From Saccostrea echinata (lineage: Eukaryota), in NCBI RefSeq assembly GCF_033153115.1, contig NW_026889758.1, forward strand, positions 43,896,001 through 43,960,000: 64,000 nt of DNA. Reading direction: 5' to 3'. The notes beneath the pieces were generated by a model, which had not been told where the DNA came from, did not search any database, and saw only the letters and a list, made by a program, of their open reading frames with translations. Positions 2,145-2,996 of this stretch are shown in pieces (positions within the stretch are counted from its first letter, which is position 1; every line of letters begins with the position of its first letter). Both the position numbers and the translations under genes were made by a program.

Positions 2145-2220
2145 GCTTCCTGATTGGTCATTGAGAGCAATTCCGAATTAAGCCGGGTGGAAAGCGAATT
2201 CATGAAATTCACTTTCCATT
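2145..2220 (+). promoter_or_regulatory. Putative LTR promoter: reverse CCAAT box and initiator
   Basis: ctgattggtc (ATTGG 2153-2157) lies ~55 bp upstream of tcacttt (2209-2215, fits Inr YYANWYY), which coincides with the start of the 75-bp internal repeat. Confidence 0.5.
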
Positions 2221-2996
2221 CGATGCTTAAAGAATAAAGAAGTACATTTAATTTATAGGAATTTGTTTCTCTTTTCCATCAGGTAAGCTTGAATAAATTT
2301 ATTTTGGTATTTTCAGTAAATTTTCATTCAAATATTGTTTTTATGCTCTTTTGATGAATTCAATAGATTTTATGTTTTATATTCTGAATGGGCAAACATT
2401 CTATTATTTTTAACTTTTTGGTGAACTTTGAGTTTGTCACTTTATTCATAATTTTAGAATTGTATGACTTTCTTACCTTTAACTTGTTTGCATACTTGTT
2501 TGATACTGATTTATTTTTACTTAATGTGTTTTGTATTGTTTGTTAAAATTGTGATTAATTAATTGAAATTTTTGTGCAAAGTTTCTTAATTTAATTCTTT
2601 GAAATCTCTTTTTATAAATTTGAACTTCCCGCGCTGATATTGTTAAACCTGTAGTGAACTCTTCAATGTAGGAAGGTAAATTTGTTAAGCGATAGAAATT
2701 CGTCGGCTAAGTGTCAGAAACATTTTCAAGATGTTTTCTTCTTTATTATTGAATGACAATAGGTAACAGTTTGATTTCTGAATTTTATACATTTTATAAG
2801 CGTTATGCATAATTTGATTTCTTCGGAGTTATTCATCTTTAGTTTATAAGCATGAAACAATCATACCTTCTCTCATCGAGTTTACTACAGGGTGTATCGA
2901 AATTTGTTAACTTGTGTTTTTTTCACTTTCCATTCGATGCTTAAAGAATAAAGAAGTACATTTAATTTATAGGAATTTGTTTCTCTTTTCCATCAG
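2208..2996 (+). repeat. Exact 75-bp direct repeat inside the LTR (2208-2282 and 2922-2996) flanking a putative 714-nt intron (2283-2996)
   Basis: Copy 1 ends CAG followed by GTAAGC (donor). Copy 2 ends ttgtttctcttttccatcAG (acceptor). Both contain AATAAA. The same arrangement occurs at 12801-12875 / 13515-13589. Confidence 0.85.

Follow-up and report, generated by a model that had tools for sequence, protein, structure and literature searches.

The window, that is, the whole 64,000-nucleotide stretch of Saccostrea echinata DNA that we analyzed, contains a gag-pol-env retroelement with two unusual features: each LTR is predicted to harbor an intron that would be renewed in every replication cycle, and the outermost segment of U3 lies inverted at the left end of the element. 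We assign this combined explanation, a self-renewing intron together with a flipped tip, a probability of roughly 0.8. Both features bend rules thought general for such elements, and neither the intra-LTR intron repeat nor the flipped tip is described in the literature that we searched (Repbase, subscription papers, and bioRxiv supplements lay outside its scope).

A Ty3/gypsy Element Resembling Errantiviruses

The pol domain order (PR-RT-RH-IN), with gag upstream, is that of Ty3/gypsy (Metaviridae) elements, as is the combination of direct LTRs, a primer-binding site (PBS), a polypurine tract (PPT), and a target-site duplication (TSD) in the 4-6-bp range (Table 1). The LTRs are not identical from end to end with TG...CA termini; the first 52 bp are inverted, and the right end reads GAAA. 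These non-standard ends count against canonical integration, not against the protein-based assignment to Ty3/gypsy. The two LTR bodies show 0 mismatches, indicating that the element inserted recently.

Compared directly with Pfam, the third ORF has no match. It has 67 homologues, among them bivalve proteins and Baculo_F-bearing proteins, and shares 47% identity with P0005, a protein scoring above the Baculo_F cut-off, and 38% with P0033; by way of these homologues, it is of the baculovirus-F type that distinguishes F-type errantiviruses. The chromodomain model PF00385 scores 17.6 bits at the C-terminus of pol, against a cut-off of 25.1, and a chromodomain clade has been described among errantiviruses (PMC13524379). 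The element is an F-type errantivirus-like member of Ty3/gypsy, of the kind surveyed by Chary and Hayashi as F-type env "ancient errantiviruses" of molluscs (PMC13524379). The surveyed elements share its gag-pol-env layout, F-type env, and bivalve homologues; in some of them the LTRs measure 1.1-1.8 kb and the tRNA match, 2-5 nt past the LTR, is poor. The main text of that survey has no match to "inverted", "splice", or "TSD" and contains "intron" once, in a reference; neither of the features described here is mentioned in it.

Gag and pol occupy one frame, separated by a single TAG at 4583-4585 that may be subject to programmed read-through; the pol frame of a C40 copy equally has 1392 codons. 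At its start (8979-9046), env has no ATG but a strong candidate splice acceptor at 9044-9045.

Table 1. Features of the element in the window (forward-strand positions within the 64,000 nucleotides).
Feature	Position	Strand	Remarks
Left 4-bp TSD, GTTT	1510..1513	+	same letters as 13672-13675
gag-pol-env Ty3/gypsy element, errantivirus-like (F-type)	1514-13671	+	target duplication GTTT
Flipped 52-bp U3 tip of 5' LTR	1514..1565	-	reverse complement of 12107-12158; TGTTACA at host junction
5' LTR body	1566..3078	+	identical to 12159-13671; terminates GTGAAA, not CA
CCAAT box, reverse (ATTGG)	2153..2157	-	58 nt before Inr A at 2211
Repeat copy 1, putative exon 1	2208..2282	+	Inr A 2211, AATAAA 2233-2238
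Putative 714-nt GT-AG intron in R region	2283..2996	+	donor GTAAGC 2283-2288; layout conserved
Repeat copy 2, putative 3' end of intron	2922..2996	+	AATAAA 2947-2952, branch-point-like motif, pyrimidine tract, AG 2995-2996
U5 / putative start of exon 2	2997..3078	+	from sequence
Primer-binding site	3081..3091	+	2 nt past LTR; best read tRNA-Ala(AGC), one bulge
gag (Retrotrans_gag)	3128..4585	+	in-frame TAG at its end, ahead of pol
pol: protease, RT, RNase H, integrase	4586..8764	+	weak C-terminal chromodomain match
env ORF, F-type, without ATG at start	8979..11534	+	candidate splice acceptor AG 9044-9045
Polypurine tract	12095..12106	+	from sequence
U3 tip, 3'-LTR orientation	12107..12158	+	ends in putative internal attachment site TAACA|GG
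3' LTR body	12159..13671	+	identical to 1566-3078
3'-LTR copy 1	12801..12875	+	AATAAA 12826, donor at 12876
3'-LTR copy 2	13515..13589	+	AATAAA 13540; predicted cleavage ~13556-13575 and strong-stop landing
Right 4-bp TSD, GTTT	13672..13675	+	from sequence

A Repeat Bounded by an Initiator-like Site and a Splice-donor Motif

As the preliminary description had reported, each LTR holds an exact 75-bp repeat at a spacing of 714, copy 1 stopping at CAG|GTAAGC and copy 2 closing with a pyrimidine run and CAG|ATATAG. The AATAAA hexamers that it placed at 2233, 2947, 12826, and 13540 were verified, and further ones lie at 1920 (in U3) and at 2292, 10 nt inside the putative intron. Copy 1 begins 3 nt ahead of the A in TCACTTT, the initiator-like (Inr) site. 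A CCAAT box is present upstream of it, on the reverse strand and 58 nt from the Inr A; an imperfect inverted repeat spans the Inr at 2188-2219. Finding an exact 75-mer twice within 1.5 kb is far above chance, and the repeat recurs in other copies and families.

LTR regions of relatives were gathered by searching this genome at both the DNA and the RT level, with two families lacking a usable LTR pair (C22 and C76) excluded from the feature counts. The intra-LTR repeat layout occurs in 13 families, whose RTs are 55-88% identical where measured. The co-variation of the copies within elements that had been predicted was borne out: they are 95-100% identical within an LTR (90% in the mosaic LTR L126), while exon identity between families has a median of 61% and a range of 53-77%. 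The spacing from copy to copy varies from 238 to 1333 nt. By sequence, the donor and acceptor signals of a spliceosomal intron are present in all 13 families: copy 1 leads into an AG|GT donor in 13/13, canonical donors being conserved after copy 1 only, and the identity of the copies ends exactly at the AG in nine families and extends 2-4 nt in the remaining four, whose U5 also begins with GT. An Inr-like site marks the start of copy 1 in 12 of the 13, and in every one of these 12 the identity begins 0-6 nt upstream of the Inr A, the exon measures 62-76 nt, and AATAAA lies at +19 to +23. A YTNAY motif is found 22-42 nt upstream of the AG in 10/12 (families B and E9 have none, and the E9 acceptor is weak), and a reverse CCAAT box 58-64 nt ahead of the Inr in 7/12. 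One E8 copy has a GC donor.

Family C52 (L166), with a 46-nt repeat, a 238-nt intron, and a TATA motif before copy 1, is the simplest form of the layout; its nearest AATAAA lies in the intron only, just before copy 2. Five families that are sisters or more distant relatives, and that either had both LTRs in view or stood in the tree (C17b, C47/C76, C4, C29, and C11), lack the repeat; repeat-less C17b and C47 fall in the same unresolved clade as repeat-bearing families. A metagenome scan returned one close relative among 13 loci (L244), without a whole LTR.

Proposed Renewal of the Intron

We propose that transcription starts at the Inr in copy 1 and that, in the 5' LTR, the cap-proximal 72-nt exon is spliced onto U5. 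In the 3' LTR, the same donor would end an exon of 3-10 kb that is poorly committed to splicing, and the RNA would be cleaved 15-35 nt after the copy-2 AATAAA, ahead of the AG. The pyrimidine tract would serve either as a downstream element or as a splice signal, never both, and the asymmetry of the two LTRs would lie in a short capped first exon at one end and a multi-kilobase exon at the other. Strong-stop DNA consisting of exon 1 and U5 could anneal to the copy-2 stub, and synthesis would continue through the intron, copy 1, and U3. In each cycle, copy 2 would thus be rewritten from exon 1, the last bases of exon 1 turning into the acceptor, and the intron would be inherited from the unspliced 3' end.

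A repeat bounded by an initiator and a splice donor points to an RNA intermediate, and co-variation together with these boundaries supports the earlier suggestion that spliced exon 1 overwrites copy 2 at the first strand transfer. Judging from these sequence patterns, splice-defined regeneration of the R-region intron is very probable. Two LTRs (L095 and L096) fit such overwriting, in that copy 2 matches their own copy 1 though the adjoining half of the intron belongs to the other haplotype. The mosaic LTR L126, whose copies differ at four haplotype sites with the switch inside the intron and not at the copy-2 boundary, neither supports nor refutes it. Within families, 38 LTRs contain 34 variants common to both copies and 57 private ones; in family C, much of the tally of 19 shared variants comes from a single haplotype that enters the count several times, and the private variants indicate that copy identity decays after insertion. 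Reverse transcriptase can copy the RNA cap, so that a G would be expected just 5' of copy 2; one is found there in 6/13 families against 2.0 expected (p=0.008, an optimistic value since the families are related and not independent samples). Reads across a 2282^2997 junction, which had been proposed as a check, would be uninformative because a spliced read equals genomic copy 2 plus U5 letter for letter. None of the runs recorded as RNA contains the stretch; assembled contigs of uncertain type from four other runs span the LTR together with its intron and lack a 2282-2997 joint, which weighs neither for nor against splicing.

That the purpose of the LTR intron is poly(A) gating is probable. The form in which this was first put, that splicing removes the 5' poly(A) signal, fits C52, where AATAAA is in the intron alone, and fails in the other 12 families, in which 5' splicing would leave the signal in place because exon 1 carries it. 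Since exon 1 keeps its own AATAAA, it must be silenced by cap proximity and by U1 bound at the donor, by analogy with foamy virus.

A rival reading does without splicing: the repeat would be a promoter/terminator module present in duplicate, and gene conversion, or template switching by RT in a long R region, would maintain the identity of its copies. Direct repeats 0.2-1.3 kb apart are able to convert, one repeat unit is often lost precisely, and mosaic LTRs imply frequent recombination. Conversion tracts, however, have no reason to halt at AG|GT in 13/13 families and at the Inr in 12/12 while the exons themselves have diverged to ~61%, and the conservation of canonical donors after copy 1 alone speaks against conversion as well; we regard this splice-free reading as very unlikely. 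Another reading accepts splicing and overwriting and has the RNA end in U5 past the acceptor, the intron serving expression (intron-enhanced transcription or export, or a donor for env) instead of the choice of poly(A) site. In its favour, expression benefits from a short first exon followed by an intron, env has no ATG of its own and so depends on a donor upstream, and intron-less two-LTR elements exist (C44). What makes this reading improbable is that AATAAA is held so tightly in its place in all 12 Inr families, that exon 1 has no conserved ATG for env to receive, and that the repeat is present in C52 and C33, two families whose examined stretch yielded no env.

LTRs missing exactly the intron are known from 5', 3', and solo positions and are explained equally by recombination between the repeats or by a jump onto copy 1. 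C16 and C61 had suggested that the intron is lost preferentially from the 5' LTR, an idea that we abandoned because intron-less 3' and solo LTRs exist.

An Inverted U3 Tip at the Left End

The tip is inverted at the left end in 44 of 45 inspected LTR-bearing insertions from six families (A 11, B 5, C 7, D 17, D2 1, C6b 3), a count that leaves out tip matches with unrelated neighbours and nine tip-tip insertions. The exception, a D copy, begins at the body with no tip, and at none of the 45 left ends does the tip stand in 3'-LTR orientation. Where both ends could be read, the flipped insertions mostly have 4-bp TSDs. The inner end of the tip joins body base 1 in 18/44, a truncated body or internal region in 19/44, and, in 7/44, a tip that was retained, in many cases together with PPT letters; PPT remnants are found at several tip joins. 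An assembly artefact was ruled out as the cause, as the flip recurs on many contigs with family-specific tips, and so was an independent MITE in the LTR, as the tip stands right behind the PPT in the 3' LTR and borders on the TSD in the 5' LTR.

In an RT tree limited to elements of this genome, midpoint-rooted and without family B, which has no RT in it, the flip families fall in one supported clade of 11 rows (96/93) that also includes C33 and C22. No 50-bp inversion was seen in C33; in this family (L224, L225, L141), the 5' and solo LTRs start with TGTCAC, and the 3' LTR starts with TATTAGCAC after a run of G. Five other repeat-bearing families have ordinary ends (E8, E9, E10, C61, C40b). 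The flip truncates the 19 insertions mentioned above and yet persists across families 61-88% alike in RT, which calls for an explanation.

The simplest reading combines an internal integrase site with host repair. Integrase would process the CA ~50 bp inside U3 (ACA|G) instead of the natural left end, and joining of this internal plus-strand CA to the target would land the tip in inverted orientation and leave a break. Host repair would then close this break by connecting the free end of the tip with the remainder of the element, either precisely or following truncation, or with a tip that had been retained. The products are observed, and we consider it fairly likely that such chemistry generates them. 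Alternatively, integrase itself might connect the 3' end of the minus strand with the internal site on the plus strand, or the tip might be a separate short duplex, so that the flip would be programmed auto-integration or the use of that duplex, with host end-joining of little part. In the 18 joins noted above, the body starts precisely with its base 1, whereas the tip side is frequently trimmed by 2-14 nt; one insertion (L125) has inverted body sequence outside the tip, a hairpin-like product that favours joining by integrase; and tip-tip insertions, like the combination of tip and retained tip, require a second or copied tip. Against these points, the inner end of the tip is not a CA end, and the trimming, filler bases, and microhomologies at the joins resemble end-joining, so that joining by integrase or from a short duplex, while worth keeping in view, seems doubtful.

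Several minor observations may be added. Head-to-head tip-tip insertions of ~90-105 bp with TGT...ACA ends (L045, L049, L052, L056, L057, L058, L242) have a perfect 4-bp TSD in 5/7 and one with a single mismatch in 2/7; they resemble MITEs, yet are derived from LTR tips. Among the 19 joins with truncation, five (L027, L129, L160, L230, L231) lie no more than ~30 nt from the point at which copy 2 begins. Inverted LTR pairs also occur in families with ordinary ends (L182, L208). Tandem elements sharing an LTR, and five D-family LTRs arrayed at ~3-kb spacing, were observed at G000:C1:19575027-19596085 and G000:C25:8954535-8968148.

Comparison with Known Systems and Implications

Ginger DNA transposons have a gypsy-like integrase, TGT...ACA inverted ends, and a 4-bp TSD. 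The tip-tip insertions, and the pair of tips flanking gag-pol-env, are similar to them; the present element differs from Ginger in having RT, LTRs, a PBS, and a PPT, and in that its right end is U5.

Foamy virus offers a parallel to U1-mediated silencing, as a splice donor within R and the binding of U1 inhibit poly(A) addition at the 5' LTR (Schrom 2013, PMC3694450). There, however, the signal has the donor upstream of it, splicing is not needed for the suppression, and the part of that report available to us describes neither an intra-LTR intron nor a duplicated exon. Penelope-like elements keep a 5'-UTR intron in their pseudo-LTR through retrotransposition and often have an inverted, 5'-truncated left end with a 30-40-bp tail (Craig 2021, PMC8557442). 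They differ in their GIY-YIG endonuclease and in having no tRNA priming and no integrase TSD; in the available portion of the same paper, intron retention is left unexplained and no exon duplication is described (PMC8557442). The present element is not Penelope-like, as it has an rve integrase and no GIY-YIG match. In aberrant one-ended retroviral integration, host repair likewise completes the insertion and leaves deletions or inversions, but these are accidents of an inhibited integrase and affect host DNA (Varadarajan 2016, PMC5041404). Here, a TSD is found at both junctions, and the inversion is of fixed length, lies inside the element, and is present in nearly every copy. Troyka is another aquatic LTR lineage with non-standard termini, distinguished by CG...CG ends, a 3-bp TSD, LTRs of 100-400 bp, and the lack of env (Kojima 2025, PMC12440569); the element shows none of the CG...CG termini, 3-bp TSD, or missing env that would place it in this lineage as the paper's available part defines it. 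The available parts of PMC4558846 and PMC10294476 contain nothing relevant to either feature.

We think it slightly better than an even bet that a widespread bivalve errantivirus lineage solves the poly(A) problem posed by two LTRs with a heritable intron and that a sub-lineage integrates by an obligatory flip and rejoining. If so, the LTR intron would be a third way of distinguishing identical LTRs for polyadenylation, would show in a worked example how a spliced intron can persist in an LTR retroelement, and would be an exception to the rule behind intron-based retrotransposition reporters. Because the edges of the repeat would mark the transcription start site and the donor from DNA alone, the layout can be screened for genome-wide. 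LTRs are assumed to match each other when they insert and to have TG...CA termini. The flipped tip breaks with this assumption, and the boundaries of such copies would be misplaced by LTR finders and in LTR dating. A flip-and-rejoin provirus would have unequal LTRs, and inverted repeats on either side of gag-pol-env, from the outset. The flip sub-lineage could then represent a present-day intermediate linking LTR elements with TIR transposons of the Ginger type.

Primer Binding and Genomic Surroundings

The PBS of the element pairs with host tRNA-Ala(AGC) over 5 contiguous nt plus a bulge, and the match extends over 14-18 nt in families D, D2, and C4. In duplex energy, tRNA-Ala exceeds tRNA-Leu as partner for 15 of 17 PBSs; we looked for tRNA-Leu or a novel tRNA as primer and found neither. 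To Tf1-style self-priming, in which exon 1 would fold onto the PBS and start reverse transcription, we give almost no credence. The 3' end of the exon, CCA included, does pair with the PBS in a fold of 2925-3115 (z -2.25; 6/200 shuffles equal), and the chromodomain-like end of pol also counted in its favour, but the PBSs of relatives match host tRNA-Ala(AGC) over the lengths given above, changes in the exon/PBS pairing in family C are not compensatory, and self-priming would leave copy 2 unrewritten. Tf1-type elements have a PBS complementary to the 5' end of the RNA, and here the pairing uses the 3' end of the exon. In the spliced leader (2978-3094), a stem from the end of the exon to the PBS region is likewise predicted (z -2.25); such a stem could regulate primer access.

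The element is surrounded by a 127-140-bp tandem repeat (694-1513 and 13673-14085), and a separate 156-bp tandem array lies downstream at 18533-20000.
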